A stretch of 64,000 bases of DNA, taken from a bacterium. GTDB lineage: Bacteria > Zhuqueibacterota > QNDG01 > JAGLOF01. Under the pieces are notes generated by a model. It was not told the DNA's origin and did not search any database. It was given only the letters and a program-made list of their open reading frames with translations. The number at the start of each line of letters is the position of its first letter. Position 1 is the stretch's first letter. Positions 2,808-52,288 of this stretch are shown here, in pieces. The DNA lies in contig JAGLOF010000016.1 in assembly GCA_023139105.1 (NCBI GenBank), forward strand, positions 959 through 64,958, in the 5' to 3' direction. Position numbers and translations under genes: made by a program.

Positions 2808-3208
2808 TATTGCATCTTCAACAATTGATTATATAGCACCTTCAGCAATGGGAAATAAGTAGTACGGATATCACTCTCAACTCGCAACATGATAGCTTCA
2901 TCGTATACATGGACAGTCAAATTTCTGTCATTGAGCGCTTCCAGCCAATTTTCACCGTCCTCAATCAAATCAATTTGAAAGGCCTGCTTGATTACGTCCC
3001 GGGGCGTTTTCACAAGAAACCCCTCTGATTCCAGGTAATCTTTCAAAGTTTTCCAACCCAATTCAAAGGTAATTTCATAGAATTGTATTAACCCGCCCCG
3101 CTCAGCCTCCGAGGGCTCTGCAATGGACATAGTTCTTTCCAATAAATGGAAAGATTTCTTAAAATTCTCAAATCGCTGTTTCCAACGGATAATCTTAAAA
3201 TTGTCCAT
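2807..3208 (-). CDS. HI0074-family nucleotidyltransferase substrate-binding (HEPN) protein
   Basis: WKQRFENFKKSF..L......E..GLIQ.FE.T.EL.WKTLKDYL fits the family. The likely start is MDNFKII at 3208 rather than the ORF-track start at 3241. Confidence 0.8.
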   Translation of the reverse strand: MDNFKIIRWKQRFENFKKSFHLLERTMSIAEPSEAERGGLIQFYEITFELGWKTLKDYLESEGFLVKTPRDVIKQAFQIDLIEDGENWLEALNDRNLTVHVYDEAIMLRVESDIRTTYFPLLKVLYNQLLKMQ

Positions 3209-3288
3209 GATAGTCCAGGAGCAAATGAAAAGTTTATACACAAAAAGTAACGATTTAGCATCTTTTACAGGACGGACTCTTTACCCTT

Positions 3289-3702
3289 CTAAACATACAA
3301 AGTATAAATAACTGAATAATATTCCTCAAGATCCTTCAGGTGTTTCTCCATAATACTCTTCAGAATATCCAGATCAATTTGCTGATAATCATGTACCGCG
3401 ATATTCCGAAACCCAACCATGCTCGACATCTTATTAAAAATCTCTTTCTCAATCAAACCATTGGTGTGCAGAACATGAAAACATTCCCTGTAAGTAGCAG
3501 GCAACTTCAAACCACGTTCACTGATTACAATATTGGCCATGTCAATTGCCGCTTGAATAGCCCGCTGAAGATTGAGAACAAAAACATCCTGTATCATTAC
3601 ATCATCAAGGCTGGACACATTGAGAGCAGTAACCTTGTGAATAGTGTTCAGACAGTTTTTTATAATAGAAATTTTGGAGAGAATCACATCTTTTTCAAGC
3701 AT
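3289..3702 (-). CDS. hepT: DUF86/HepT HEPN toxin
   Basis: Carries the R-x4-H motif FRNIAVHDYQQID. The likely start MLEKD at 3702 overlaps the end of mntA. Confidence 0.8.
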   Translation of the reverse strand: MLEKDVILSKISIIKNCLNTIHKVTALNVSSLDDVMIQDVFVLNLQRAIQAAIDMANIVISERGLKLPATYRECFHVLHTNGLIEKEIFNKMSSMVGFRNIAVHDYQQIDLDILKSIMEKHLKDLEEYYSVIYTLYV

Positions 3703-4096
3703 AAATCCGCCCATTAAGCATATGCTCTTCAATAATTTTTCGGCTTATCTTAAAATCAATGTATTGAGTGATTATACCTGCCTTATAACTGATAAAAACT
3801 ACCGGATCGTTGTTCACTAAAAGGCGACCATTGGCCAGGGCTTGCATGGAAATGATCAAATCCGCATCATTCAGGAACACAATGTCACATTCATAGGGCG
3901 ATACATCCCAAAACGAACGACGAAAGGCCATTTTATCATCCCATGAAGGGGGCTGAGAAAGATAGACGGCCAGATCAATATCGCTCTCGGCATTGAAACT
4001 ATTGCCAAGAATAGAGCCAAAGGCCAAGGCAAACACGGTCCTAGCTTCAAGAATAGGCGTGACGATTGAGAGAATATGTGATTGATTTTGAGTCAT
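3695..4096 (-). CDS. mntA: MntA-type nucleotidyltransferase antitoxin
   Basis: Contains the FGSILGNSFNAESDIDLAVY motif. The likely start is MTQNQ at 4096. Confidence 0.75.
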   Translation of the reverse strand: MTQNQSHILSIVTPILEARTVFALAFGSILGNSFNAESDIDLAVYLSQPPSWDDKMAFRRSFWDVSPYECDIVFLNDADLIISMQALANGRLLVNNDPVVFISYKAGIITQYIDFKISRKIIEEHMLNGRIYA

Positions 4097-4305
4097 TAAA
4101 ATAAACAACCTATAAATAGAACGGAAGACACTAAGAAATACAAGAACTATTTATTTATACTGGCTCTTCTCCGTGGTTCTCCGTGTGCTTAGTGGGCTAA
4201 TCTTTTAATCTCTTAGGAAATTGAAGAGCACCGCCCACGAGGACACTTAAAGACAATGAAAAATGAATATTGATTTATTGGACATATTGATTAAAATAGA
4301 AGCAT

Positions 4306-4503
4306 CTATTTCAACGTAGCTTCAATCTGTACTAAAAACTGTTCAACATCACTCAGATTCCGAATCATGGCCTGACATATTTGCTCATAATCGATTTTAT
4401 CGTAATCATATACCCATGACCGCCTTTCTCTGGGCCAGGAAATCAAATGCGCTATGACGTATAGATATCTCATATTGATGCCGCATCTCCAGGTCCGAAT
4501 CAC
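4306..4503 (-). pseudogene. HepT/DUF86 tail remnant
   Basis: RRSWVYDYDKIDYEQICQAMIRNLSDVEQFLVQI aligns with RNIAVHDYQQIDLDILKSIMEKHLKDLEEYYSVI of the intact hepT, but with His replaced by Tyr. The N-terminal ~100 aa are missing, and the rest of the ORF overlaps the MNT gene out of frame. Confidence 0.45.
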
Positions 4504-4810
4504 AGAGAATTACGCCTTCACAGACAATTGTGTCGGCCAGCACCAGGTTTTGCAGTGTATTCAGTATGATCACATCAACCTTGTTACACTTTAATGCACG
4601 CATGCAATCGGCAATTAATTGTAACCTGAATTCTAAATTGATACATACGCTATTCACGTAAAAAGCCAAATCTGTATCAGAGACCATTGATCTCTCACCG
4701 GTAACTGTGGAACCAAAACAATAGGCAAAAAGAATTTGGCCTTGATATTTTTTGAATACCGGCTGTAGTTGGATCTGAATTTTTTCGACATCAGAAGAAG
4801 GCATCAGCAT
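4406..4810 (-). CDS. MntA-like nucleotidyltransferase (partner HEPN decayed)
   Basis: Contains the FGSTVTGERSMVSDTDLAFYV motif. The likely start is at 4810 or 4804 (MLMPSSD); the longer ORF-track start adds a hydrophobic artefact. Confidence 0.7.
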   Translation of the reverse strand: MLMPSSDVEKIQIQLQPVFKKYQGQILFAYCFGSTVTGERSMVSDTDLAFYVNSVCINLEFRLQLIADCMRALKCNKVDVIILNTLQNLVLADTIVCEGVILCDSDLEMRHQYEISIRHSAFDFLAQRKAVMGI

Positions 4811-5102
4811 AAATTCTAAAGTTAGAAAATTAAAAAACATAATCAAAGGCAGAGCCCAAGCAATGCTCTGCCAACTCAGTCCCATATCCGGACCGTGCGG
4901 GAGAAAAATAATATTTGTATTGCCAAAGAGATGTGCATTACAAAGTGCTAAAAAAATAATCCACTAAATACACAGTGCTGAATTATTGGCGAATTTAAAA
5001 TCACATGATAATGGATTAGTGGGCTGTAAAAAGATAATAAATTATTCGGTAAAAATCAAGAGCGAATTCTGAATTAATTATATATAACACATCAGCCCAT
5101 TG

Positions 5103-5687: not shown

Positions 5688-5710
5688 AACTAAACCTTTT
5701 ATTAAAGAAA

Positions 5711-5911
5711 TGGCACACGGATGACACGGATTTGATAGATAAAAGCGGATTAAATATTATAACTCTAAAATAAAAAATTACGTTTATTCCATATTCTGCG
5801 TGTCACTACTATTACTTGAAATTTCATGCATGAAGAATATCCATGCTTTTATTAAAAAAGTTATATTTTTATCAGTGACTATCGCTCTCAATCCGTTCTT
5901 TCCGTGTGCCA
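5711..5911. repeat. inverted pair of CACGGAT-type modules (arms 5711-5732 and 5890-5911) around a 157-nt AT-rich spacer
   Basis: The left arm is TGGCACACGGATGACACGGATT. The reverse complement of the right arm is TGGCACACGGAAAGAACGGATT. They match at 18/22 positions. The pair fills the spacer between 5918..6871 and 5103..5687. Confidence 0.8.
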
Positions 5912-6871: not shown

Positions 6872-6897
6872 AGGATTTCCTTTTAACGAAACAAAGA

Positions 6898-7001
6898 GCA
6901 ATCGCACACTGATGACACGGATTAAATGGATGACCACAGTCTAATTAATTATAAAAAATCCGCTTTGATCCGTTAAATCCGTGGTATCCGTGTTCCATTG
7001 C
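6898..7001. repeat. imperfect inverted repeat of CACGGAT-type modules (arms 6898-6939 and 6960-7001)
   Basis: Hand alignment of the left arm with the reverse complement of the right arm gives 30 of 42 positions complementary. The loop is TCTAATTAATTATAAAAAAT. It lies between 7013..8149 and 5918..6871. Confidence 0.7.
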
Positions 7002-7012
7002 CTTTAATATTT

Positions 7013-8149
7013 TTATCTATAGAACTCACCTATCTTCTGAATAATATAATCCTGCATCTCTGTGGTGAGTTCAGGATAAATAGGCAGAGCAATGGTGCTG
7101 TTGGCAGCTTTTTCTGATTCGGGAAAGTCACCCACTTCATAACCCAGATATTTAAAACATTCCTGTTCATGGAAGGATACAGGATAGTAAACCTCACAGC
7201 CTATACCCGCATCGTTGAGATAGCGGCGAAGATCATCACGATTACCAGGTACTTTGACAATATACTGATTATAAATATGTGATTCACGATTGTAAGCTAT
7301 GTGGGGTTTTAAAAGACCCTCAACATTGAGATGTTCATCGTAGTATGCGGCATTCTGCTGACGTCCCTTGTGCCAGTCATCCAGATGCGGAAGTTTGACA
7401 AGTAAAATAGCAGCCTGCATGGCATCTAACCTGAAGTTACCGCCTACCATTTGATGATAATATTTTGGATGAGCACCATGATTCCGCAATTTTTGAATTT
7501 TATCTGCAAAGGCCTTATCATTGGTCACCACCATACCGCCATCACCCATACAGCCAAGGTTTTTGGATGGAAAGAAGCTGAAACATCCGGCAAGCCCCAT
7601 AGAGCCTGCACGTTTCTCACCGGCTTTGGAAGGATAACGAGACCCAATTGCCTGGGCAGCATCTTCTATAACAGGGATATTATGGCTATCTGCAATCGCC
7701 AAGATGGCATCCATATCAGCACACTGACCGTAGAGATGAACTGGTATTATCGCCTTAACCTTGCTGATCTTATCCTGATTATCATTAAACCAGGCTGAAA
7801 GTTTGGTCGGATCAAGATTATAAGTTAACGGATCAATTCCTACAAAAACAGGTGTAGCACAGAGTCTTGAGATGACACCTGCAGTGGCAAAAAATGAATA
7901 CGGTGTGGTAATAACAATATCACCGTGACCAACACCTATACCCATGAGCGATACAAGAAGAGCATCTGTGCCGCTGGTAACACCAATAGCATATGCAGCA
8001 CCGCAATAATCGGCGACAGCCTCTTCAAGAGCAGTTATTTTAGGGCCGCCAATATATCGCGTTGAATCAATAACATCATTAACAGCAGCCTTAATCTCAT
8101 CACGCAAAGGATCAAGCTGTGCATTTAAATCAAGCAAAGGAACATTCAT
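7013..8149 (-). CDS. DegT/DnrJ/EryC1-family PLP aminotransferase, WbpE-like
   Basis: MNVPLLDLNAQLDPLRDEI.. and FFPSKNLGCMGDGG (PLP-lysine region). The preferred start is at 8149. Confidence 0.85.
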   Translation of the reverse strand: MNVPLLDLNAQLDPLRDEIKAAVNDVIDSTRYIGGPKITALEEAVADYCGAAYAIGVTSGTDALLVSLMGIGVGHGDIVITTPYSFFATAGVISRLCATPVFVGIDPLTYNLDPTKLSAWFNDNQDKISKVKAIIPVHLYGQCADMDAILAIADSHNIPVIEDAAQAIGSRYPSKAGEKRAGSMGLAGCFSFFPSKNLGCMGDGGMVVTNDKAFADKIQKLRNHGAHPKYYHQMVGGNFRLDAMQAAILLVKLPHLDDWHKGRQQNAAYYDEHLNVEGLLKPHIAYNRESHIYNQYIVKVPGNRDDLRRYLNDAGIGCEVYYPVSFHEQECFKYLGYEVGDFPESEKAANSTIALPIYPELTTEMQDYIIQKIGEFYR

Positions 8150-8303: not shown

Positions 8304-8383
8304 AACGAGGGTATAATTGTATTATTATTTAAATCTCTGAGCTTCTTCCCTGTTTTGATCCGCTCTTATCCGTGTTCCATTGC
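8304..8383. repeat. direct repeat copy 1 (TATAAT-containing leader plus CCGTG module)
   Basis: Aligns with 8585..8673. About 70 of 80 positions are identical by hand count. Confidence 0.8.
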
Positions 8384-8584
8384 TCCTGCTCTTCTTCGTA
8401 TCTTTCGTATCCTTCGTAGGCGATGCTCTTTGTTCTTAAGCATGTACTTTTTCCCTTGAACCAGGATGCAGCTCCGCCATGTAAGTCCCATTTTAACGGA
8501 ACCACATGGTGTTTTTTAATGTGCAAAAAATAAATCTCACACTATCTCTATGTCAACAAATCCACAGCAACCGGATTTAAAATA

Positions 8585-8673
8585 AACGAGAGTATAATTA
8601 TATTATTATCTAAATCTCTTCTCTTCTTCCCTGCTTTGATCCACTCTTATCCGTATAATCCGTGTCCCATTGC
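8585..8673. repeat. direct repeat copy 2 (one extra 9-nt ATAATCCGT unit)
   Basis: Aligns with 8304..8383. Confidence 0.8.
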
Positions 8674-8705
8674 ACTCAATCTTCCCGGTAGACTTCAAGC
8701 TCTCA

Positions 8706-8779
8706 ACTTTTTACTTTTTACTTTTTACTTTTGCCCTTTTACTTCCTACTCCCTACTTCCTACTTTCTACTTTCCACTT
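8706..8779. repeat. 7-bp tandem array A3 (ACTTTTT drifting to ACTTCCT / ACTTTCT / ACTTTCC)
   Basis: The AC dinucleotide falls on a 7-nt grid at 8706, 8713, 8720, 8727, 8741, 8748, 8755, 8762, 8769 and 8776. The array ends 6 nt from the upxY stop. Confidence 0.95.
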
Positions 8780-9316: not shown

Positions 9317-9433
9317 AATGAATCCAAAAAAACAAGTTATAAGTTTAAAGGCAAAAGGAAAAAGTGAAGAGCAAACGTTTCGTGACTGAAACCCGCGTAC
9401 AAATGGAGTACAGTCTGTTACTACTATTTTTTT

Positions 9434-9534
9434 GCCTTTTGCCTTTTGCCTTTTGCTTTTGCCTTTTTACTTTCTACTTTTGCCTTTTGCTTTTCTACTT
9501 TCTACTTTTACCTTTTACCTTTTACCTTTTACTT
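9434..9534. repeat. 7-bp tandem array A4 (GCCTTTT / ACTTTCT / ACCTTTT, ~14 units)
   Basis: Counted directly. Most units are 7 nt, a few are 6 or 8 nt. It overlaps the wecB stop codon and lies ~118 nt upstream of the upxY start. Confidence 0.95.
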
Positions 9535-13195: not shown

Positions 13196-13834
13196 CTATA
13201 CTCTAAGATCTATAACTTCTGCACCATCAGGCATCTGAAATTCAAAATCCTTTGGTAAATGTGGCTTATCAATCTCAATCGATTTTAATCTGTAGACACT
13301 CTCATTATCATCGAAATCTATCTGCAAAAGCTTGACTGGAAGCCATGTCTTCAAATTTATCCATAATTCGGTTTTAGGATAGAGTACGGCTTCGGTTTTT
13401 GCAGTAAAAACCAGATGCGCGCACTCTATTTTATCAAGCAGTTCTTTGCCGACAGATTGGACATCATAATCATCGGAATACTGAAAAAGCATTTTATATG
13501 GTGCCATCTGGACATCATTTTCACCAATCTCATCAATAAGCACACGATTGTCAGGTTTAATATATGTCCATACTGTAGTACCATCGGAGACCATGATTTG
13601 ATCGGCAGTCTTAATTTTAAACTGCCGCTCTCCCTTCATCAACACAATACCATCAACAGTTGATGTCTCACCGGCAAGCTTCCAAATATAAGTCTCTGAG
13701 AAAGCAATATCCAGTGTTTTCGCTTGTTTTAATGTTTTTTTCAATTTATTTATTATATAATCAGGCGACATATTTTGTGCAGACGCAGCTATGCTCCAAA
13801 GAATCAACATTGATATAAGTAATAATTTTCTCAT
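13196..13834 (-). CDS. lolA: LolA-like outer-membrane lipoprotein carrier
   Basis: Signal peptide ending AASAQ and a LolA-fold-like sequence. The ftsK-lolA synteny is classic. Confidence 0.7.
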   Translation of the reverse strand: MRKLLLISMLILWSIAASAQNMSPDYIINKLKKTLKQAKTLDIAFSETYIWKLAGETSTVDGIVLMKGERQFKIKTADQIMVSDGTTVWTYIKPDNRVLIDEIGENDVQMAPYKMLFQYSDDYDVQSVGKELLDKIECAHLVFTAKTEAVLYPKTELWINLKTWLPVKLLQIDFDDNESVYRLKSIEIDKPHLPKDFEFQMPDGAEVIDLRV

Positions 13835-36263: not shown

Positions 36264-36320
36264 ATTTGTAATTTGTTATTTGTTATTTGTTATTTGTTAT
36301 TTGTTATTTGTGCTTTGTGC
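36264..36320. repeat. 7-bp tandem array A5 (ATTTGTT, 8 units)
   Basis: G recurs every 7 nt from 36268 to 36317. The array is 18 nt after the pyk stop and 43 nt before the M28 ATG. Confidence 0.95.
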
Positions 36321-38251: not shown

Positions 38252-38300
38252 TTGTTATTTGGACTTTGCTTTTTGCTTTTTGCTTTTTGTTATTTGGAAT
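38252..38300. repeat. 7-bp tandem array A6 (TTGTTAT TTGGACT TTGCTTT x3 TTGTTAT TTGGAAT)
   Basis: G recurs every 7 nt from 38254 to 38296. The array ends 20 nt before the DUF58 ATG. Confidence 0.95.
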
Positions 38301-40785: not shown

Positions 40786-40787
40786 CA

Positions 40788-40811
40788 GCCTTAAGTCAGA
40801 CAGACTGCTAG
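40788..40811. repeat. 24-nt exact inverted copy of the left terminus of the 51671..51839 element
   Basis: GCCTTAAGTCAGACAGACTGCTAG is the reverse complement of 51671-51694. It is embedded in the hairpin CTAGCAG-N16-CTGCTAG, which overlaps the kinase stop codon (TAG at 40783-40785). Confidence 0.85.
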
Positions 40812-41280: not shown

Positions 41281-41919
41281 TTGCTTAAAGTCAACGAAAT
41301 TTTCTACTCAATCCAGGGTGAATCATCGTATGCCGGACACCCCTGCATCTTCATCCGGTTGACAGGCTGCAATATCCGCTGTAATTATTGTGATACTACA
41401 TATGCCTATGAAAAGGGCAAGCTCTTTTCAATAGAATTAATTCTTGAACACCTGGAACACTATAATTGCGGATTAGTGGAAATTACAGGCGGTGAACCGC
41501 TTATGCAATCGGAAACTTCCGATCTGGCCAGAACTCTGATAGCCTCCGGTTATACGGTTTTAGTTGAATCAAACGGTACGCTGGACATAGGTCTTCTTCC
41601 GCCCGGAACACATGTAATTATGGATATCAAATCTCCCGGCAGCGGCGTTTCGGAAATGATGAACTGGCAGAATATGGACAGGCTCACCGATGACGATGAA
41701 GTAAAATTAGTCTTATCTGACAGGGCTGACTATGAATGGGCACGCTCTATAATATATAAATATGCCCTGCACAAACGTTCTAATACCCTACTCTCTGTAG
41801 TAGCAGGCAGGCTTAATCCTGAAGATCTGGCAGCATGGATACTTGAAGATGAACTTGAAGTTCGACTTCAGTTGCAGATGCATAAAATTCTTTGGCCAAA
41901 TGATGAAAAAGGACGATAA
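41281..41919 (+). CDS. queE: 7-carboxy-7-deazaguanine synthase (radical SAM)
   Basis: IFYSIQGES...G.P..FIRL.GCN..C.YCDT motif. Confidence 0.9.
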
Positions 41920-42601
41920 ACAACGCGCCGTCGTGCTGTTGAGCGGCGGCCTGGACTCTGCTACCGTGCTGGCCATGGCCAGAGCCCGGGGGGTAGATTG
42001 CTATGCCCTCAGCTTTCGGTACGGTCAGCGCCACAGCCATGAACTGGCAGCTGCTAAAGTTGTAGCCGAGACCATGGGCGTTAAACGCCACCTCATCCTG
42101 GACCTCGATTTCCGGGCCATGGGTGGCTCAGCACTGACAGCGGATATCGATGTACCCAAGGACAGAGACACAGCCCGGATGGAAGATGAGATCCCCATCA
42201 CCTATGTGCCGGCCCGGAACATTGTGTTCTTGTCGATTGCCCTTGGCTGGGCCGAGACATTGCACGCACGACAGATCCACATCGGCGTCAACGCCATGGA
42301 CTACTCCGGTTACCCGGATTGCCGTCCGGATTTCATAGACGCCTTTCAGGCCATGGCCAACCAGGGTACCAAGGCGGGAGTGGAGGGCCATCCATTTACC
42401 ATTCACACGCCGCTGATGCAGATGACCAAGGCCCGAATCATTGCCGAGGGGATACGCCTGGGCGTGGATTATGCCATGACGCACAGTTGCTATGATCCGG
42501 CCGTCGATGGCCTGGCTTGCGGCTGTTGCGACAGTTGCCTGATCCGGAAAAAAGGCTTTGCCGAAGCCGGCGTGCCTGATCCGACAAAATACATGAAGTG
42601 A
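41900..42601 (+). CDS. queC: 7-cyano-7-deazaguanine synthase
   Basis: [13 protein letters not shown]-loop and a C-terminal zinc cluster C..C..C..R. The ATG at 41900 is preferred. Confidence 0.95.
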
Positions 42602-42648
42602 AGACCTGTTTAAGTGAATATCGAACAAGAATTAACGATTTTCAAATT

Positions 42649-42720
42649 CACTTTTTAACTTTTAACTTTTAACTTTTAACTTTTAACTTTTAACTTTTAA
42701 CTTTTTACTTTTTACTTATT
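42649..42720. repeat. 7-bp tandem array A7 (AACTTTT, ~10 units)
   Basis: C recurs every 7 nt from 42659 to 42715. The array lies between the queC stop (42601) and the queF ATG (42737). Confidence 0.95.
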
Positions 42721-42736
42721 TCATTTCGAGGCAATT

Positions 42737-43123
42737 ATGACTCAAGAAAAACCCGGAATCCTGGCTATTCGTGAGAATCAGCTCACACCGGTTAAAAACC
42801 ACTATCCTGACAGAGATTACGAAGTCGAGATCACGCTGCCTGAGTTCACCTGCCTCTGCCCCATCTCAGGCTATCCTGACTTTGGCGTGATTCACGTCAA
42901 ATATGTGCCTGACAACTCCATCATCGAGCTCAAGTCTATTAAACTCTACATCAATAAATTCCGCGATGAGGCCCATTTTCATGAAGCCGTGGTAAACAAA
43001 ATAATGGACGACCTCATTGAGGCCATCGATCCACGATGGATACGCGTGATCGGCGACTTCAACCCCCGCGGCAATGTCAAAACCGTGGTGACCGTGGAAC
43101 ACAGGAAAGGTGACACACCGTGA
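42737..43123 (+). CDS. queF: NADPH-dependent 7-cyano-7-deazaguanine reductase (unimodular type)
   Basis: EFTCLCPISGYPDFG and E.KS.KLY motifs. Confidence 0.9.
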   Translation: MTQEKPGILAIRENQLTPVKNHYPDRDYEVEITLPEFTCLCPISGYPDFGVIHVKYVPDNSIIELKSIKLYINKFRDEAHFHEAVVNKIMDDLIEAIDPRWIRVIGDFNPRGNVKTVVTVEHRKGDTP

Positions 43124-43884
43124 TCGATGTCCAGAATCAACCCGACACCCGGAACCTTCCCATCAACCGCGTGGGCGTCAAGGATCTCCGTTACCCCATC
43201 ACGGTGACCGACAGAGCCAACGATGTGCAGCAGACAGTGGCTTCCATCAACATGTATGTAAGCCTGCCCCGGCACTTCAGGGGCACGCACATGAGCCGCT
43301 TCATTGAAATCTTGAACGAAAAGCATCAGACACTGCATATCGACGGCATTGCAGATCTGCTAAAAACGATGAAGCAAAGACTGGAGGCCCATGAGGCTCA
43401 CATGGACGTGAGCTTCCCCTACTTCATCGAGAAGACTGCGCCGATCTCCGGAGCCAAGAGCCTCATGGAATACAAATGCTCCTACAGCGGCATTCTCAGC
43501 GATACGCTCGATTTTATCCTGCGTGTGGATGTGCCCGTAACCAGCCTCTGCCCTTGCTCCAAGGAGCTCTCCGATCGAGGAGCGCATAACCAACGCTCCA
43601 TTGTCTCCATCGCCATCAGATCCAGTGATTTTGTCTGGATTGAAGAATTAGTGGAAATTGCAGAAGCCGCCGCATCCAGCCCGGTCTATTCACTATTGAA
43701 GCGTAGTGATGAAAAAGCCGTAACCGAAGCTGCATATGATAATCCCCGTTTTGTGGAAGACCTGGTGCGTGAAGTAGCTGCCAAATTAAATGCCGACTCC
43801 CGCATCACCTGGTATAAAGTGGAATCCGAAAACTTTGAGTCAATCCATAATCACAGTGCATATGCCGCCATTGAGAAGGTATAA
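43120..43884 (+). CDS. folE2: GTP cyclohydrolase IB (FolE2/MptA family)
   Basis: RGTHMSRF, SLCPCSKE and HNQRS motifs. Confidence 0.9.
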   Translation: MIDVQNQPDTRNLPINRVGVKDLRYPITVTDRANDVQQTVASINMYVSLPRHFRGTHMSRFIEILNEKHQTLHIDGIADLLKTMKQRLEAHEAHMDVSFPYFIEKTAPISGAKSLMEYKCSYSGILSDTLDFILRVDVPVTSLCPCSKELSDRGAHNQRSIVSIAIRSSDFVWIEELVEIAEAAASSPVYSLLKRSDEKAVTEAAYDNPRFVEDLVREVAAKLNADSRITWYKVESENFESIHNHSAYAAIEKV

Positions 43885-43994
43885 TTATAAAACCCTTGCA
43901 ACCTGCTAAGATTCTTTACGTATATTTATAATGAAATCGCCCAAAACGGACTACCTCTCCCAACAGTCTGGTTTTAATGTTTAAGGAGGGACAG

Positions 43995-44702
43995 ATGAAC
44001 CCTAAACCCACACCTTTTCTCTTCGGACTATTTTTCATCCTCTTTGGTGGCTTCTTGCTGCTCGGTACTACAGGGATAGTACAAATAGACGAAGAAATTA
44101 CAGTGGCCTCTATTTTTGCAATTGCCGGCCTTGTCATGATTCAAGCACACTTCCTGCAAAAAAAGCCCATATGGATGCTAATTGTCGGAGGCATCAGTCT
44201 ATTTATAGGTACTGCTGTTTTCATTGAAAACACAAGAATAATTCCCGAGGAATCAATAGGTGTTCTCTTATTTGTAATAGCTGCAGCAATATTTCTTTTG
44301 CAACTACGCAAAGGCAAAGAAGCCTGGTGGGCCATTATTCCTGGTGGCTTCTGCCTTGTAATGGCCGGACATGTATTGCTCAGTCTTACTATGTGGCACC
44401 CGGAAGAACTGCATGGAGCACTTTTCTTTGGTGGTATGGGGGCAATATTCGGTATAATTTATTTATTGAAAGATGAAAACTACAATCTAGGCTGGGCAAA
44501 ATGGCCGGCACTTTCCGCATTGATCATGAGTGCTTTTATACTATTTGTTAATAACGACCAAACAATTGGAAAATTATTTTTTCCACTCATATTAATCTTC
44601 TTTGGCGGGATAATTCTGTTTAAATCTATGCATCGTCAACATAATCAAGACATTGACTCCTCTTCTGTATCTACTACTGAAAATGAAGATATAGTTCAGT
44701 AG
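43995..44702 (+). CDS. multi-pass membrane protein of unknown function, last gene of the que transcription unit
   Basis: AAGGAGG lies upstream of the ATG at 43995. There are about 7 hydrophobic segments with recurring FGG/GG motifs, followed by a strong terminator. Confidence 0.6.
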   Translation: MNPKPTPFLFGLFFILFGGFLLLGTTGIVQIDEEITVASIFAIAGLVMIQAHFLQKKPIWMLIVGGISLFIGTAVFIENTRIIPEESIGVLLFVIAAAIFLLQLRKGKEAWWAIIPGGFCLVMAGHVLLSLTMWHPEELHGALFFGGMGAIFGIIYLLKDENYNLGWAKWPALSALIMSAFILFVNNDQTIGKLFFPLILIFFGGIILFKSMHRQHNQDIDSSSVSTTENEDIVQ

Positions 44703-44731
44703 TCAATAATCCATAGACTTTTTTCTTTAAA

Positions 44732-44767
44732 TCCCGGTACTCTAAAATAGAGTGCCGGGATTTTTTT
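44732..44767 (+). terminator. rho-independent terminator
   Basis: TCCCGGTACTCT-AAAAT-AGAGTGCCGGGA (12-bp stem with one G-U pair) followed by T7. Confidence 0.8.
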
Positions 44768-45175
44768 ACTGTTTTTAACACTTTTCAATTGACCTCCGGT
44801 CGGCGTTAAAACTTCAGGAGTGACAAGCTTTATGAAGGTTTGTGTCATCCCTAAAAAACTGTCATCTCCCGTACAGAACCGGGACTCAGCCTGTATGCTC
44901 CTGGCAGGGATCTATCATTCAAAGGTTCACCTGCTAATAACAGTAACGGACTCTATATTTTAAAAATCCTCAATTGTAGACTACTGACAAAGACATTCAT
45001 TTCGTAGCGGCGTATGCCCTTCGCCCACACTACTTGACATTTACAATTACGAGGTGTTCTGTTAAACACAGCATGTTGATGTGGTTTTATTAATCCATAA
45101 AACATCCGGAGGCGCATCGCAAAAGCCTCATCAAACATCAGCGGGAACTGTAGGTTACACGAGTATAGCGCAAGG

Positions 45176-45408
45176 AGATTGCCACGGCACAGAACGCCTC
45201 GCAATGACACATACGGACTTAACGCTCTGCCGGGGAGCCGTTTGTGCAGGCAACAGCGGCAGTCCCATCAAGGCTCCACCAGCATTCATCAATATCTTTC
45301 AGGCAGGGCAGGGCGGCTTCGTGGTCTTCGTGTTCTCTGTGCGAGTGCTCTTTTTCGTTTTTTTCGCTCTTTTCCGTAGGCAATGTTCCTGCTCTTCTTT
45401 CATTTTAA
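45176..45408. repeat. left copy of the ~235-bp direct repeat flanking the ABC island (empty site for the MITE-like element)
   Basis: Colinear with 51574..51968. The first 49 nt differ at 1 position. There are a few small indels and the 169-bp insertion is absent. Confidence 0.9.
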
Positions 45409-45790
45409 ATTTTATATCCGTACGCATCTGTGATAAGCTCTGGCAAAATTTAGTATTTACCCACACGATTCAACAGAGCCTTTATTCTATTAAAATTAGA
45501 ATACCACATAAGAAAGAAACTATCATTGTGAGACTTTTTTTACCGAAGCAATCTTTTAGTCAGGACTTTCGTCCAATATACCCGTTATCAAGATCCCCGA
45601 TAAAAACATTCGAGGATGACAAACTTAGAGACTTACAGCAAACACAATTAATTGTGCAACTCCTCAATTTCAACATAAAATCTTTTTACTTGACATTGAA
45701 ACTTACGATCACTATCTTTCGTACGAATACTGTAAGAACAAACATAAATCGTATATTTTTAACAGTTTCGTCTAATCAGGATATCATTAA

Positions 45791-46369
45791 ATGCCCGAGA
45801 ACAGCAGCAAAGCCCAACAGATTCTTATCACCGCCAAAGATCTCTTCTATCGATACGGCTTCAAACGCGTCTCTATTGAAGAAGTCTGCCGCGAGGCCGG
45901 AGTCAGTAAAATGACATTTTACAAATACTTTAAAAATAAAAATGGGCTGATCATTCATATGATGAATACGTTGAGCAGGGATGCCTGGGAGATTTACGAA
46001 TCCATCATGAGCCGGCAAATTCCCTACAAAGAAAAAGTGGCTGGCATGCTCCGCCTCAAAGCCGACAGCACAAAGGGACTGAGCCCGGAACTGCTTCAGG
46101 AAATCCACAACAGTGATGATGAAGAGCTCAAAGCCTACTTTCAGAAACACACAATAACCAATTTGAAACGCATCATGAAAGACCTGACCAAAGCACAGCA
46201 AGACGGAGAACTCAGGCAAGACATGAAAATTGGATTTATCCTCTACTTCATGAACCACATGTTCGAAATGGCCAAAGACCAACAGCTCACAGCACTCTAT
46301 GCCACACCTCAGGATCTCATCATGGAGCTGAACAATTTCTTTTTTTACGGCATACTGCCCAGGGAATAA
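45791..46369 (+). CDS. TetR/AcrR-family transcriptional regulator
   Basis: HTH region LFYRYGFKRVSIEEVCREAGVSKMTFYKYF. Confidence 0.9.
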   Translation: MPENSSKAQQILITAKDLFYRYGFKRVSIEEVCREAGVSKMTFYKYFKNKNGLIIHMMNTLSRDAWEIYESIMSRQIPYKEKVAGMLRLKADSTKGLSPELLQEIHNSDDEELKAYFQKHTITNLKRIMKDLTKAQQDGELRQDMKIGFILYFMNHMFEMAKDQQLTALYATPQDLIMELNNFFFYGILPRE

Positions 46370-46372
46370 TCC

Positions 46373-47545
46373 ATGAGAATAAAAACGATTGTTATCTTCT
46401 GTACATTATTGGGCACGACGTGCTTACAGGGCCAAAGCGTCCGTTTCAGTGGCCAGGTAGATGCCTGGGGCGGCAGCCGCATCGAGGAGCTGGCATTGCC
46501 TGTGCTAGGATTACGCTATGTCCCTGAATTCTATGTGGAAAAAGCATCGGGCAGCAACTTGATCGATGCGCAAGCGTCATTCAATCTCTTTACCTCTCAT
46601 ATGAATGATGGAAATCAATGGTCAGACGACACGGATGTCAAACTCTATCGGACATGGTTGCGCTACAGCAATGCTCAGAGCGAACTACGTCTCGGGCTAC
46701 AGAAAATCAACTTCGGCTCAGCCAGTCTTATCCGACCGCTGATGTGGTTTGATCGTATTGATCCGAGAGACCCATTGCAGCTCACCGACGGGGTCTGGGG
46801 AATTCTCTATCGTCGATACTTCATAAATAACACCAACTTTTGGCTCTGGGCTCTCTGGGGAAATGAAAAAGTAAAAGGCTGGGAAGCCATCCCCACCCAT
46901 AAAACGACGCCTGAATTCGGCGGACGTATGCAATTCCCTGTACCGAGAGGCGAATTGGCGGCGACCTTTCACCACCGCCGGGCCGATCTGGATGAAGGCA
47001 TCAATGCCATCCGTGAGATGCTGGGTATCCCGCCCCATGCAGAGATCACCTTCGCTCCCCTTGGGCAGATTAATGAGAATCGATTCGGACTGGACGGGAA
47101 GTGGGACTTCACCATTGGATTCTGGGTCGAATCTGCATTCACACACCGGGACATCACACTGCTCCACACGCCATGGCAACGCATGACCGTCATTGGCGCC
47201 GATTACACTTTTGGACTGGGTAACGGCCTCCATGTGATGACCGAACACGCGCGTATTGAAATGAGTGAGGCGGCCTTCTCCAAAGCAGCCGAGGGCTTCG
47301 ATTTCACAGCCCTGTCACTGAATTACCCGCTTGGCCTGCTGGATACTGTCTCAGGCCTGCTCTACCGCGACTGGGACAGCGGCAGCTGGTATCGCTTCAT
47401 CCGCTGGCAGAGAACCTACGACGCCATTCAGCTCCACGCCATGGCGTTCTGGAATCCGGATCGTTTTGCCATGCTTCCGCAGATGGGATCGTCCCCGGCC
47501 ATGGCCGGAAAAGGCTTTCAACTGCTTTTTGTATTCAATCATTAA
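46373..47545 (+). CDS. hypothetical secreted / outer-membrane protein (beta-rich)
   Basis: Signal peptide MRIKTIVIFCTLLGTTCLQGQS and alternating aromatic/polar strands. I recognise no named domain. Confidence 0.5.
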   Translation: MRIKTIVIFCTLLGTTCLQGQSVRFSGQVDAWGGSRIEELALPVLGLRYVPEFYVEKASGSNLIDAQASFNLFTSHMNDGNQWSDDTDVKLYRTWLRYSNAQSELRLGLQKINFGSASLIRPLMWFDRIDPRDPLQLTDGVWGILYRRYFINNTNFWLWALWGNEKVKGWEAIPTHKTTPEFGGRMQFPVPRGELAATFHHRRADLDEGINAIREMLGIPPHAEITFAPLGQINENRFGLDGKWDFTIGFWVESAFTHRDITLLHTPWQRMTVIGADYTFGLGNGLHVMTEHARIEMSEAAFSKAAEGFDFTALSLNYPLGLLDTVSGLLYRDWDSGSWYRFIRWQRTYDAIQLHAMAFWNPDRFAMLPQMGSSPAMAGKGFQLLFVFNH

Positions 47546-47562
47546 CTATAAACGAGGTTGTC

Positions 47563-48261
47563 ATGGACAATAATCACCTCATTACGACTGAAAATCTGAC
47601 GAAGCGCTTTCCCATGGGACAGACAGAACTCACAGCCTTAAACAACATTAATCTGACCATCCGAAAGGGTGAGTTCATAGGTCTTGTAGGTCCGTCGGGA
47701 TCGGGCAAAACGACATTGCTGAATATACTCGGCACGCTGGATTCGCCCACTGAGGGCAGCGCTGTGGTCCTGGGAAATAATACCGCGGAGCTCTCTCACA
47801 AAAACTCAGCCAAATTAAGGAACCTGCAGATCGGATTTATCTTTCAGACTTTCAATCTACTGCCGGTCTATACAGTGTATGAAAATGTGGAATTCCCTTT
47901 ATTGCTTCAAAAACTCGGCAAATCTCAGCGACACGACATGGTCGTGGATGCCTTAAAATGGGTTGGCCTGGCAGATCGAGCCAAATCCAAACCAGCCCAA
48001 CTCTCCGGTGGTCAATGCCAGCGCGTAGCCATTGCCCGGGCCATTGTCAAGAAACCGGCTCTGGTTCTGGCCGATGAGCCCACAGCCAATTTGGACGCCA
48101 AGAATTCCCACCATATCCTTAAAACAATGGAAACGTTGAATAAAGAACTAGGCACTACATTCATCTTTGCCACACATGATGAAAAAGTCATCGGCTATCT
48201 CAAACGTCAGATCACTTTGGATGACGGGCAGATTGCCAATGACCAGGTACTCAAAGGTTAA
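47563..48261 (+). CDS. ABC transporter ATP-binding protein (MacB/LolD-type)
   Basis: Walker A GPSGSGKTT, signature LSGGQCQR and Walker B LVLADEPT. Confidence 0.95.
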   Translation: MDNNHLITTENLTKRFPMGQTELTALNNINLTIRKGEFIGLVGPSGSGKTTLLNILGTLDSPTEGSAVVLGNNTAELSHKNSAKLRNLQIGFIFQTFNLLPVYTVYENVEFPLLLQKLGKSQRHDMVVDALKWVGLADRAKSKPAQLSGGQCQRVAIARAIVKKPALVLADEPTANLDAKNSHHILKTMETLNKELGTTFIFATHDEKVIGYLKRQITLDDGQIANDQVLKG

Positions 48262-48279
48262 GGGGAAGGAGACAATAGC

Positions 48280-49452
48280 ATGTTGGCTTTCAAACTTGCA
48301 TTGCGCAATTTGTTCGGTGCCGGTCTTCGTACCTGGCTGACCGTTATAGTCCTGTCATTCTCCTATGTCATCATCATTTTTCAGCAGGGCATGCTGGACG
48401 GATGGAACAAGCAGGCACGACGGGATATGATGCACTGGGAACTTGGTGGCGGCCAATACTGGCATACCGCTTATGACCCTTATGATTTTTTCACGATTGA
48501 AGATGGCCGCGGCCCATTGGCTCCTGAACTTCAAAGCCGGGTCGATCAAGGGCAAGCCACCGATGTACTGATTTCCCAGGCCTCCATCTACCCCGATGGC
48601 CGGCTGATGAGCGTGCTGCTTAAAGGCATTGATCCTAATCAGACCATCCTGGATATGCCTACCGCACCGCTGGTCGAAAACATCACTGAAATCCCTGCCC
48701 TGATTGGGAGACGTATGGCTGAGGCCGCCAAACTGCGTAAAGGCGATGTGGTCACTGTTCGCTGGCGGGATGCCAACGGCACATTTGATGCCACTGAAAT
48801 CAAGATCGTCGAAGTGATGAAAACCAACGTGGGAAGCATAGATATGGGTCAGCTATGGTTGCCCAAATCCCGCCTTGAATCCATGTTGGGCGTTGAAAAT
48901 ATGACTACCTATCTGGTTTTAAAACGGGGCAGCAATGCAACGGATACAGTGAATGGATGGGTGTATCGTGATCACGCCTATCTCATGAAAGAACTCACCG
49001 AAATGATTAAAATGAAATCGGTGGGCGGCTCCATCATGTTTCTCGTTCTGCTGGCTCTGGCCTGGCTGGCCATCTTTGATACGCAGGTGCTTTCCATATT
49101 CCGGCGACGCAAAGAAATTGGTACAATGATCGCACTGGGAATGACAAGGCAGCGGGTGGTGCGCATCTTCACATTGGAAGGAGCCATGCACGGCATTCTG
49201 GCTGCGGCTGTGGCAGCACTCTACGGCGCGCCTCTCTTCATATGGATGGCCAGATCCGGATGGGCCATGCCCGAAATGACCGATGACATGGGAATGGCTA
49301 TTGCTGAACGCATCTACCCCAGCTACAGCCTGGGACTCATTGCCATGACCACGGCCATTGTGATGCTCTCGGTGATTGTTGTCAGTTTTATCCCGGCGCG
49401 CAACATCACCACGTTCAATCCCACCGACGCCATTAAAGGAAAAACATCATGA
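48280..49452 (+). CDS. ABC transporter permease, FtsX/MacB-type
   Basis: One N-terminal TM segment, a large periplasmic loop and a C-terminal FtsX-like 3-TM bundle. Confidence 0.85.
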   Translation: MLAFKLALRNLFGAGLRTWLTVIVLSFSYVIIIFQQGMLDGWNKQARRDMMHWELGGGQYWHTAYDPYDFFTIEDGRGPLAPELQSRVDQGQATDVLISQASIYPDGRLMSVLLKGIDPNQTILDMPTAPLVENITEIPALIGRRMAEAAKLRKGDVVTVRWRDANGTFDATEIKIVEVMKTNVGSIDMGQLWLPKSRLESMLGVENMTTYLVLKRGSNATDTVNGWVYRDHAYLMKELTEMIKMKSVGGSIMFLVLLALAWLAIFDTQVLSIFRRRKEIGTMIALGMTRQRVVRIFTLEGAMHGILAAAVAALYGAPLFIWMARSGWAMPEMTDDMGMAIAERIYPSYSLGLIAMTTAIVMLSVIVVSFIPARNITTFNPTDAIKGKTS

Positions 49453-50717
49453 TCCGCTTTTTACTCAAAGGACTGGTGCGGGACCGGCACCGCAGCCTGT
49501 TCCCCATATTGGTCGTTTCCATAGGTGTGATGCTGACGGTATTTGCCCATAGCTGGTTCAGCGGCATGATCAATGACATTATTGATTCCAATGCCAAGTT
49601 CGACACCGGGCACATCAAGATCATGAGTCGAAGCTATGCGGAGAATAAAGACCAGACGCCTAATGACCTGGCCCTGACCGGGATTAATGATCTGCTTCAG
49701 CAGTTGAGAGACGACATCCCGGAGATGGCCTGGACTCCCCGTATTAAATTCGGTGGCTTGATCGACATTCCCGATGAGGCAGGTGAAACCCGCTCTCAAT
49801 CACCAGCCATGGGTGTTGCTTTGGATTTTTACGGTCCCGGCGGTGAAGTCGAACGACTCAACATACAAAATGCCTTGGTCACAGGACGCCTCCCCCGGAA
49901 TCCCGGTGAGATTCTCATCAGTGACGAGCTGGCCCAGCGCCTGGAGACCAAGGTCGGCGATACGGCTACATTGATTGGGTCCACCATGTACGGTGCCATG
50001 GCTGTGCACAACTTCACAATCTCAGGAACGTTGAAATTCGGCATGAAGGCCATGGACCGCGGCGCCATGCTGGTCGATATTCATGACATACGACTGGCAT
50101 TGGATATGGATGATGCTGCCGGAGAGATTGTGGGCTATATGCACCCTATCTATAAAGATAACACCATACAGTCCATCAAGGCTGAATTCAATAGCCTTCA
50201 TACTGAGAACGATGACGAATTTGCACCCGTCATGCTCTCACTCCGTGATCAAAATGGATTGAACGACTATCTGGTGTATGCCGAGTCCATCTCCGGAATG
50301 CTAATCTTTGTTTTTGTCGGCATCATGTCTCTGGTGCTATGGAATACCGGCCTGATTGGTGGAATTCGGCGCTACGGTGAAATTGGTGTCCGCCTCGCCA
50401 TTGGTGAAAACAAAGGGGGCGTTTATCGCTCCATGGTGCTGGAATCTGCGGCCATCGGCTTTGCCGGTTCACTGATTGGCTCCATTCTTGGACTGGCCCT
50501 GGCCTATTGGATTCAGGTTAAAGGAATTAATTTGGGTGATATGATGGGCAACAGCTCACTACTGATCTCCAATATTGTCCGCACCCGCATCACCGAACAA
50601 ACCTACTATATTGGATTTATTCCCGGCCTGCTCTCCACGGTGCTGGGTTCCATGCTGGCCGGTATTGGAATCTATAAACGCCAGACCGCCCAGCTCTTTA
50701 AAGAATTAGAAGTTTGA
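49449..50717 (+). CDS. ABC transporter permease, FtsX/MacB-type (second)
   Basis: Same architecture as 48280..49452, with a 4-nt overlap with the upstream gene. Confidence 0.85.
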   Translation: MIRFLLKGLVRDRHRSLFPILVVSIGVMLTVFAHSWFSGMINDIIDSNAKFDTGHIKIMSRSYAENKDQTPNDLALTGINDLLQQLRDDIPEMAWTPRIKFGGLIDIPDEAGETRSQSPAMGVALDFYGPGGEVERLNIQNALVTGRLPRNPGEILISDELAQRLETKVGDTATLIGSTMYGAMAVHNFTISGTLKFGMKAMDRGAMLVDIHDIRLALDMDDAAGEIVGYMHPIYKDNTIQSIKAEFNSLHTENDDEFAPVMLSLRDQNGLNDYLVYAESISGMLIFVFVGIMSLVLWNTGLIGGIRRYGEIGVRLAIGENKGGVYRSMVLESAAIGFAGSLIGSILGLALAYWIQVKGINLGDMMGNSSLLISNIVRTRITEQTYYIGFIPGLLSTVLGSMLAGIGIYKRQTAQLFKELEV

Positions 50718-51463
50718 TGGAGGACGCCATGCGCGCACGTTTATTCATAATCTGTTTTCTCCTGGCTATGCCGATTGCCATACTGGCCCAGAACGGCAAT
50801 GAAATACTGAAACGGGTCGATGAGAACATGGGGGCCGAGTCCCGCATCCATGAATCGACCATGATCATACACGGAAGGCGGGGCACACGCACAGTCACAT
50901 CCAGGTCGTGGATTATCGGGATCGACAAATCCTTTACCGAATTCCTCTCACCGGCAAGGGAGCGCGGCACTAAGATGCTGAAGCTGGAGGATGAGCTTTG
51001 GACATACTCCCCCTCGACAGACCGTACGATTCGCATTGCCGGCCACATGCTGCGTCAGTCCGTCATGGGCTCAGACCTCTCCTACGAAGACGCCATGGAG
51101 GATCCGCATCTGCCTAATATCTACACAGCTGAAAAGGATGGTGAGGAGACCATACTCGAACGCAACTGCTGGATACTGAAGCTCACGGCTACAAAAAACG
51201 ACGTGGCCTATCACTCTCGCCGTCTCTGGGTGGACAAGACGCGTTATCTCGTACTGAAGGAAGAACGATTTGCAAAAAGCGGCAAACTGCTGAAAACAGC
51301 CGAAGTGAAAGCCGTCAAACGCATGGACAATCGCTGGGTGGCCACGCACATGGTGTTCAGAGACATGCTCAAGAAAGGCAAAGGAACCGAATTCAAACTC
51401 AACAAGGTAACATTCAATGCCAACATCCCTGCCCACCGCTTCTCCAAGGCTGCATTACGCTAA
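50714..51463 (+). CDS. LolA-like outer-membrane lipoprotein-sorting protein
   Basis: Signal peptide ..AMPIAILAQ, then ILKRVDEN......S.M.IH..RG.R and WTYSPS..R..RI. The start is uncertain (50714 TTG, 50717 ATG or 50732 ATG). Confidence 0.75.
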   Translation: MMEDAMRARLFIICFLLAMPIAILAQNGNEILKRVDENMGAESRIHESTMIIHGRRGTRTVTSRSWIIGIDKSFTEFLSPARERGTKMLKLEDELWTYSPSTDRTIRIAGHMLRQSVMGSDLSYEDAMEDPHLPNIYTAEKDGEETILERNCWILKLTATKNDVAYHSRRLWVDKTRYLVLKEERFAKSGKLLKTAEVKAVKRMDNRWVATHMVFRDMLKKGKGTEFKLNKVTFNANIPAHRFSKAALR

Positions 51464-51573
51464 ATAACTCTACAAGGGCATGCAGGAGTGACATAGAAAC
51501 CACAAAGTGATTTTGCCGGAGTAATCTATTCTGCGATAATCCGTATCATCTACGGGGCAGATCTCCACAAAGA

Positions 51574-51968
51574 AGATTGCCACGGCACAAAACGCCTCGC
51601 AATGACACATACGGACTTAACGTTGTCTCTGCCAGGGAAGCATTTGTGCAGGCGTCCCATCAAGGCTCCACTAGCAGTCTGTCTGACTTAAGGCTATTAG
51701 GCATGTTTTTAGAGATTTTTTTCCTATTCAAGGCGCGATTGAGGCGCATAAAGAGCTTTATGTAACGAGTGAGCAACGCAGAATAGGGGAAAAAGATCAA
51801 AAACAGGACAATATTGGCGTAAGTCCGACAGGCTGCTGGCATTCATCAATATCTTTCAGGCAGGGCAGGGCGGCTTCGTGGTCTTTGTGATCTCTGTGCG
51901 AGTGCTCTTTTTTTTATTTTTTCCGCTCTTTTTCGTAGGCAAATGTTCCTGCTCTTCTTTCATTTTAT
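51574..51968. repeat. right copy of the ~235-bp direct repeat (interrupted by the 169-bp insertion)
   Basis: Colinear with 45176..45408. Confidence 0.9.
51671..51839. mobile_element. MITE-like 169-bp insertion with 24-nt imperfect terminal inverted repeats
   Basis: CTAGCAGTCTGTCTGACTTAAGGC (51671-51694) against the reverse complement of 51816-51839 (CCAGCAGCCTGTCGGACTTACGCC) matches at 19/24. The element is absent from the paralogous site at ~45270. Confidence 0.55.
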
Positions 51969-52288
51969 AAAAATTTGGGTGTCCCTGTGTCGAAAACAGG
52001 GAAAAACTGTCATCCCTGCATGCTCCTGGCAGGGATCCATCATTTAAAGGCGCACATGTATTAACAGCAGCAGAATCTACATTTTTAATCCTCGCTATTG
52101 TAGACTCCTGACAAGGGCACTCAGGAGTGACATGCTTTTAAGGTTTATGTCATCCGTGTTCAATTTCTTTTCTATTAATCTCATTAATACATTAAATCCG
52201 GATTGCTTTTCAGGCTAAATTTTCGTAAAATGTAAGTTAATCTTCACGTCTTCAGAAAAAGGCACTTATCTGACGGAAAACTATTTTA

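Follow-up and report, generated by a model that had tools for sequence, protein, structure and literature searches.

Genomic islands and other integrative elements are recognized by flanking direct repeats, deviant composition, an integrase, a tRNA or att target, and absence of the block from the orthologous site of relatives. Here, we analyze a locus that carries the first two of these marks: a ~6-kb block of six genes, a predicted envelope export operon, that deviates in composition from its surroundings and is bracketed by two direct copies of a repeat, R. It lies in an uncultured bacterium of the Zhuqueibacterota (GTDB lineage QNDG01; JAGLOF01), within a 64,000-nt stretch of contig JAGLOF010000016.1 (assembly GCA_023139105.1, forward-strand positions 959 to 64,958) that we refer to as the window and number from its first letter. 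The initial annotation of this DNA interpreted the repeat-cargo-repeat layout as the expected outcome of Campbell-type integration of a circle, or of repeat-mediated duplication and capture. We show instead that the operon has long resided at this chromosomal site, with a membrane-protein gene on one side and bioY on the other. The reading that we consider best, and hold with somewhat better than even confidence, is patchy orthologous replacement by recombination with a GC-richer relative, together with local growth of repeats in the flanking spacers.

Relative to genomic islands, the locus has no integrase or recombinase and no tRNA or att target in the window, and the block is present at the orthologous site of relatives that carry no repeats. 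Its repeats (237 bp) are also far longer than att cores and are joined by extra, shuffled modules. A second point of comparison is orthologous replacement after transformation, as in the mosaic pbp genes of Streptococcus and Neisseria and in patchy multi-tract imports from one donor molecule. The locus shares with such mosaics an unchanged gene order, foreign composition, sharp edges (one of them intragenic), and two closely spaced tracts. It differs in that the donor is putative and its closer kinship to any one lineage conjectural at the sequence level, and in that the host is uncultured. A third comparison is with bacterial interspersed mosaic elements (BIMEs), repetitive extragenic palindromic (REP) sequences and REPINs, and miniature inverted-repeat transposable elements (MITEs), which the spacers resemble in their intergenic, non-coding modules of varying order, their short hairpins, and a palindromic insertion nested in one repeat. 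Unlike these families, the modules termed R, B, and H below show no dispersal within the 64 kb and form hairpins of little thermodynamic stability, and R has neither clear terminal inverted repeats nor a clear target-site duplication.

The genes themselves have a described counterpart in Borrelia, where BBJ23-BBJ29 form a comparable cluster of a barrel, a MacB-like ABC transporter, and a LolA-like protein that has been argued to export a non-polar ligand (PMC13078400). The cargo operon likewise encodes a LolD-like ATPase, FtsX/MacB-fold permeases, a LolA-like protein, and an outer-membrane barrel. It departs from LolCDE/MacB-type (type VII) systems with such partners, of which the Borrelia cluster is an example, in that its barrel is porin/AlgE-like, not Omp85, its two FtsX-type permeases are separate, it has no MacA-type adaptor, it is TetR-controlled by prediction, and it misses all NCBIfam equivalog cutoffs.

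The operon resides at its ancestral site

Two relatives, L005 (a 186-kb contig from a JGI metagenome) and L089 (from a seawater metagenome), both at 57% GC and with 51-90% protein identity, carry the same gene order as the window: HisK-queD-queE-queC-queF-folE2-memb-tetR-barrel-ABC-FtsX-FtsX-LolA-bioY-M23-holB-PSP1-metG onward. Their spacers on the two sides of the operon measure 139-373 bp (left) and about 160 bp (right) and contain none of the modules R, B, H, X, or J that we describe for the window. Composition is uniform in both relatives, and the cargo is normal there, with a GC content at third codon positions (GC3) of 0.59-0.80, like its neighbors. In L010, a more distant species representative, the operon is again found downstream of folE2-memb, and it is absent from the site only in still more distant relatives. 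The nearest non-self homologs share 75-76% identity with the LolA-like protein and 63-66% with the flanking membrane protein, and both sets include L005 and L089.

The operon thus stands at its ancestral address; Campbell-type insertion at a new site is excluded, and the repeats joined two pre-existing spacers later. Synteny and normal composition in relatives were the very observations that the initial annotation had named as telling against integration. Rather than a single repeat copy and no cargo, the state that it had suggested looking for, L005 and L089 carry the cargo and no R.

The window as a whole is a core chromosomal region (FtsK, BamA, TamB, LpxC/D, Dxr, MetRS, RecO, and others). 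No integrase, transposase, or recombinase was found among the open reading frames (ORFs) assigned with Pfam, which comprise all of those at 39-63 kb and most of the larger ones at 2.8-33 kb and belong to housekeeping or transport families, and the window holds no tRNA or tmRNA, no Rfam match, and no att-like feature. Of the tests for a site-specific genomic island, flanking direct repeats with deviant composition gave a positive result; integrase, tRNA/att target, and absence from the orthologous site all gave negative ones.

Two GC3-rich tracts

The six cargo genes and a second compositional patch upstream of them are listed here.

41900..43618, + strand: second GC3-rich patch, comprising queC, queF, and the first ~166 codons of folE2; GC3 0.60-0.73; no flanking repeats
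45791..46369, + strand: TetR-family regulator (Pfam TetR_N, E = 1.7e-13); GC3 0.59; first gene of the GC3-rich tract
46373..47545, + strand: predicted outer-membrane beta-barrel of ~18 strands with signal peptide; 390 aa; from structure prediction
47563..48261, + strand: LolD/MacB-type ABC ATPase (Pfam ABC_tran, E = 1.9e-36; NCBIfam LolD, 5e-72, under the equivalog cutoff)
48280..50717, + strand: two FtsX-type permeases (48280-49452 and 49449-50717; Pfam FtsX, MacB_PCD)
50729..51463, + strand: LolA-like periplasmic protein (TP_0789-like, PF17131; Pfam E = 5e-59); last gene of the GC3-rich tract

The enclosed ~6 kb had been described as more GC-rich than the backbone and as carrying long antisense ORFs, and both statements hold. 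The cargo genes have a GC content of 0.45-0.53 and a GC3 of 0.53-0.66, compared with an average GC3 of 0.41 (sd 0.07) for the other 46 listed ORFs. Antisense ORFs of at least 120 aa number about 0.5 per kb in the cargo versus about 0.15 per kb elsewhere, an excess that follows from the higher GC3. The sole further GC3 outliers in the window are queC, queF, and folE2 (0.60-0.68), 2 kb upstream of the cargo.

The edges of both tracts are sharp. In in-frame sliding windows, GC3 rises from 0.33 to 0.72 at the queE/queC junction. A change point falls within folE2 at codon ~166 (~43618), where GC3 drops from 0.73 to 0.42 (twice the log-likelihood difference, 2ΔLL = 23.9); the folE2 orthologs of two relatives have no such step. 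High GC3 returns where tetR starts and persists until the LolA-like gene ends; the membrane-protein gene and bioY keep low values as far as the spacers.

Comparison with orthologs in L005 likewise sets the patch genes apart. The 11 backbone genes compared show a GC3 gap of 0.26-0.35, the 9 patch genes one of 0.00-0.21 (Mann-Whitney p = 2e-4), and the gap at first and second codon positions (GC1+2) differs in the same direction (p = 0.02). The smaller gaps indicate that the patch genes underwent less of the drift toward AT of this lineage. The module is thus compositionally foreign to its backbone.

Predicted function of the operon

Judged by its protein families, the six-gene set is a putative TetR-controlled envelope export operon. 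The 390-aa barrel protein has no sequence match in Pfam, NCBIfam, or the Protein Data Bank (PDB). Its AlphaFold2 model (mean pLDDT 90.8, pTM 0.84) matches porins and AlgE in Foldseek searches with an E-value of about 1e-9 and TM of 0.5-0.58, and the family is well populated, with 774 representative clusters. The second permease (49449-50717) contains the MacB periplasmic core domain (Pfam MacB_PCD). Canonical LolA is encoded separately at 13196-13834, adjoining ftsK; the LolA-like protein of the cargo is therefore a second, distinct paralog class in this genome.

The operon does not pass as a LolCDE system. Its proteins reach 242 of the 308 bits required by the LolD model and about 32 of the 362 required by the lolCE model, and the partner in the cargo is a PF17131 TP_0789-like protein, not a PF03548 LolA. 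As these curated NCBIfam cutoffs are missed, we read the operon from its domain content as a predicted MacB/Lol-type extractor that is not a LolCDE ortholog. Its substrate is probably hydrophobic or lipid-linked and moved from the inner membrane to or across the outer membrane.

Repeats and native segments of the two spacers

The two spacers that bound the operon combine native segments with inserted modules, as follows.

44729..44763, + strand: intrinsic terminator of the upstream membrane-protein gene (43995-44702), with 16-pair stem and T run; native part of the left spacer
44814..44851, + strand: module H, left copy; weak hairpin CAGGAGTGACA..TGTCATCC; 33/36 identical to 52121-52156
44851..44999, + strand: module B, left copy; 85% identical to 52002-52123, with a 23-nt indel
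45000..45171, + strand: segment X, in the left spacer only; with a 22-nt stretch that partly copies the tetR promoter -35 region
45172..45408, + strand: repeat R, left copy (R-left), 237 nt; on its minus strand a frame-broken orphan small ORF, then an imperfect hairpin
45683..45785, + strand: conserved tetR promoter/operator segment; native, orthologous part of the left spacer
51470..51494, + strand: 23-nt partial copy of the junction between the end of B and the 5' arm of H; 91% identical to 52111-52133
51570..51968, + strand: repeat R, right copy (R-right), 399 nt, equal to 230 nt plus a 169-bp insert
51674..51842, no strand assigned: palindromic MITE-like insert nested in R-right, 169 bp; a gap in the R alignment
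52002..52156, + strand: modules B and H, right copies (B 52002-52123, H 52121-52156)
52200..52245, + strand: conserved bioY promoter segment; native part of the right spacer

The native segments are those that relatives share. A hairpin with T run occupies the position of the terminator in L005 and L089; the tetR promoter segment, with a promoter-like site predicted at 45690-45718, is ~81% identical to L005 4951-5028 and L089 10829-10927; and the bioY promoter segment is 85% identical over 41 nt to L005, L089, and sister contigs. The bounding spacers are the longest (1088 and 825 bp) among the 21 spacers of at least 60 bp in the window. With GC contents of 0.40 and 0.42 they are also the richest, bar one 81-bp spacer (0.43), and their inserted modules reach 0.41-0.52 versus about 0.3 in the native promoter parts.

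Alignment confirms the earlier report of colinear direct repeats at 45176-45408 and 51574-51968 with a 169-bp insertion in the right copy, including the single difference in the first 49 nt (45176-45224 versus 51574-51622, blastn). Without the insert, the two copies of R align with 210 matches, 13 mismatches, and 21 gap columns (94% identity); their 129-nt tail gives a blastn E-value of 5e-45, and runs of 47, 32, and 26 nt are identical. The ends of R form a weak 17-nt terminal inverted pair (76% complementary), no target-site duplication is visible at the edges of homology in the alignment of both copies, and neither strand of R has a significant fold. The 54-aa minus-strand ORF in R has a sole match among 5.8 billion proteins searched, namely the same ORF in a sister assembly.

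The 169-bp insert folds as DNA at -33.5 kcal/mol (z -4.5), has 25-nt inverted arms (80%), and is absent from R-left, which supplies an uninterrupted empty site; a possible target duplication is ambiguous and at most 2-3 nt. MITEs are recognized by inverted termini or a palindromic body and by a precise junction with an otherwise intact target, and the insert shows these traits. Only the insert looks like a true MITE. Its 25-nt terminus recurs at 40787-40811 as a short hairpin directly after the stop codon of the histidine-kinase gene.

Alignment and block order also verify that further blocks, B and H, are common to both flanks as shuffled modules. An 18-nt core of B, ATGCTCCTGGCAGGGATC, occurs within the window at both B sites only. 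The H hairpins are weak, at about -5 kcal/mol and z about -1.5 (left copy -5.8 kcal/mol, z -1.5; DNA fold). Structured RNA or strong REP hairpins were considered as the identity of R, B, and H and dropped for want of significant folding. The arm TGTCATCC was likewise ruled out as a genome-wide uptake-type motif, with 5 copies against 2.3 expected and 4 of the 5 at this locus. The left spacer reads H-B-X-R and the right spacer fragment-J-R-Y-B-H; all blocks are direct and differently ordered, and they are therefore genuinely shuffled. The junction fragment, which had been reported at 51469-51493, is real and starts one position later, at 51470. It begins 6-7 nt after the last cargo stop codon, which ends at 51463, and forms a 21-nt inverted repeat (81%) with 52008-52028. 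In X, positions 45031-45052 resemble the tetR promoter -35 region (45687-45708) with a marginal score of 29 versus a maximum of 26 in 200 shuffles; this near-copy could be a decayed promoter duplicate or a second operator.

The corresponding left spacer of L005 (4780-4950) carries its own tandem duplicate of a ~90-nt hairpin-containing unit, and the left spacer seems prone to gaining small repeats in more than one lineage.

Distribution of the modules

No copy of R, B, or H was found elsewhere in the 64-kb window, including its 19 other spacers of at least 60 bp. Within the window, the flanking blocks are therefore not ubiquitous intergenic repeats, which the initial annotation had named as a refutation, nor do they recur in many intergenic regions as BIME and REP modules do. 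They are likewise absent from 1.4 Mb of related loci. When both spacers were compared by tblastx with these loci and the remainder of the window, nothing but the conserved tetR promoter region came up. A 21-mer from the head of R had 0 matches in 185,579 species-representative genomes, among which the source species is absent (best FolE2 relative 74%), and a 22-mer from its core had 3 chance matches only in JGI metagenomes, on contigs of 66% GC. Neither the head of R nor the insert terminus was found among viral contigs, and the left spacer had no match in plasmids or the right spacer in phages; the source organism itself is missing from most of these collections. Neither Rfam, at gathering or at permissive thresholds, nor scans for tRNA genes returned anything meaningful.

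The tail of R-right (51917-51959) is 77% similar to a short repeat at 8354-8396. Short repeats of the ATCCGTG / CACGGAT type lie near gene starts in the polysaccharide-synthesis region, at 5706-5740, 6897-6931, 6972-7014, 8354-8396, and 8635-8677.

Agreement among assemblies

Three assemblies agree across the junctions. The window matches contigs 35 and 19 of GCA_030635125.1, which breaks inside the palindromic insert, and two Logan contigs from SRR13892605 match it at 100% identity, one over 42674-44882, across the folE2 breakpoint into memb, and the other over 45463-51519. Independent contigs that cross the junctions make an assembly chimera unlikely. No empty site or circle junction was seen in any assembly examined. 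The Logan contig ends at 44882, 45463, and 51519 were considered as structural variants and rejected, as they are not at repeat edges.

Over 12.3 kb, the window and contig 35 disagree at no more than 3 positions in R-left (45205, 45216, 45280) and, within the insert, 10. Two of the three R-left differences bring the R-left of the window into line with R-right, which suggests conversion between the R copies or cross-talk during assembly. The ten insert differences lie at the contig end of GCA_030635125.1; fold-back explains them incompletely, and they may derive from another genomic copy of the palindromic element.

Proposed patchy replacement and local repeat growth

We propose that the cargo DNA was brought in from a GC-richer member of the clade by homologous recombination, which would have replaced the resident alleles and left gene order unchanged, and that queC, queF, and the 5' part of folE2 would stem from the same kind of import. 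The two patches may reflect one patchy event or two. We infer import from GC3, from the sharp tract edges, and from the position of one edge inside a gene. Both spacers have gained, as lineage-specific expansions, about 0.7-0.9 kb of relatively GC-rich, non-coding orphan DNA composed of the shared modules R, B, and H. These modules probably arose by local duplication or ectopic copying between the spacers, or by shared descent of a composite block; as all three occur in both spacers and nowhere else in the 64 kb, such routes are favored over independent insertions of dispersed elements. They may also have arrived with the imported tract. By their identities, R (94%) is younger than B (85%), and the palindromic MITE-like element landed in R-right later.

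Once in place, the two copies of R could support RecA-dependent deletion, tandem amplification, or conversion of the operon, which their identical stretches of 47, 32, and 26 nt make plausible. The earlier suggestion that recombination between the flanks would delete the module cleanly is to this extent sound, but no such variant appears in any assembly.

Several observations weigh against replacement with local repeat growth. The donor search had no result, and non-self homologs of the cargo reach no more than 76% identity. The cargo shows no clear advantage over the backbone in protein similarity to GC-rich relatives, and ratios of identity calculated gene by gene for the window, L005, and L089 are indecisive. 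Within FolE2, it is the GC3-poor part that resembles L005 more (87.5%, versus 79% for the GC3-rich part). Recombination is inefficient between partners that lie 0.2 apart in GC3, and "normal" composition is here defined from the 64 kb of backbone. Simple duplication would not by itself give the shuffled block order, for which further rearrangements are required. The proposed origin of the repeats is a candidate one, the imported tract would end somewhere within the spacers, and a dispersed family of R, B, and H beyond the 64-kb window is still conceivable.

Such a family is the core of another explanation, in which the genome would hold many scattered copies of R, B, H, and the palindromic insert as non-autonomous elements (a MITE/REP/BIME-like mosaic) that by chance gathered in both spacers, with no causal relation to the operon. 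The mosaic, shuffled arrangement would fit, as would the nested palindromic insertion with its second terminus copy at 40787-40811, the resemblance of the R tail to the short repeats 8354-8396 and 8635-8677, and the general richness of the window spacers in small repeats; public assemblies also break in or near these blocks, and differences between assemblies are confined to R-left and the insert. However, R, B, and H are missing from the remaining 19 spacers of the window, and the co-occurrence of three distinct modules in just two spacers is improbable for independent insertions. True matches were lacking in genome representatives, JGI metagenomes, the 5.8-billion-protein set, viral contigs, plasmids, and phages, most of which do not include the organism, and R has no clear terminal inverted repeats or target-site duplication. 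We regard this explanation as unlikely, though as one to be taken seriously. Quite unlikely, in our judgment, is that the operon is a repeat-bounded cassette that was lost by recombination between the R copies and regained, Campbell-type, through a circle or fragment with one R from a GC-richer relative, which is the form in which the model of the initial annotation survives. In its favor, the GC3-rich tract is delimited precisely by direct R copies that share identical stretches of up to 47 nt, no spacer in the 64 kb other than these two carries the modules, and the DNA added to the spacers exceeds native spacers in GC. The conserved promoters fit as well, since the tetR promoter would ride the circle and the bioY promoter would stay chromosomal. 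Yet relatives have the operon at this site without any R, and the queC-folE2 patch has the same compositional signature without repeats, so repeats are not needed for import. The window lacks a recombinase, tRNA, or att site, no assembly contains an empty site or circle junction, and R was not found in the other genomes or metagenomes searched. A recombinase-free "flip-out and re-entry" form of this idea, in which RecA exchange between the 237-bp repeats deletes or circularizes the operon and related cells regain it at the remaining R, is a long shot. If true, the export operon would be a population-level accessory set at a fixed address, and its foreign composition would be explained too.

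Alternatively, the compositional contrast could owe nothing to transfer and reflect selection or expression-linked codon usage, or a metagenome assembly chimera. The fruitless donor search, protein identities to relatives that do not single out the patch genes, and the chance that all assemblies derive from the same reads are in keeping with this. A 0.2 shift in GC3 with step edges, one of them inside folE2, is unlike codon selection, however; relatives lack such a pattern in the same genes, and GC1+2 is shifted too. As for a chimera, the three assemblies read the same at the junctions, and organisms about 70-80% identical would have to share long exact k-mers for one to form. We rate this explanation the least probable of all.

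Other small repeats in the window

Tandem arrays of 7-nt units, in 4-15 copies, occur in the spacers at 605-642, 1873-1899, 8706-8773, 9430-9530, 36264-36311, 38265-38289, and 42653-42717. Their units (TTCATCA, ACTTTTT, TTTTGCC, ATTTGTT, TTTTAAC) are T-rich on the + strand whatever the direction of the neighboring gene. A 131-nt direct repeat (95%) at 724-854 and 2212-2342 extends into the 5' part of a minus-strand small ORF (630-827) and adjoins a cluster of small ORFs and nucleotidyltransferase (NTase) and NTase-substrate-binding genes (2807-4885) that resemble toxin-antitoxin modules.

Implications

What is new here is the example; the underlying processes, orthologous replacement and repeat growth in spacers, are already known. 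A repeat-cargo-repeat layout with deviant GC mimics an island, yet in this case a long-resident operon has probably had its allele exchanged without changing place. For island calls, it is synteny in relatives that decides. Interest in the repeats stays local unless population data reveal that they drive loss or amplification of the operon. Finally, the sharp GC3 tracts, one ending inside folE2, suggest exchange of core DNA with relatives of quite different base composition. Such exchange in an uncultured lineage would bear on how lineages represented only by metagenome-assembled genomes evolve and on how composition-based island finders are to be read.

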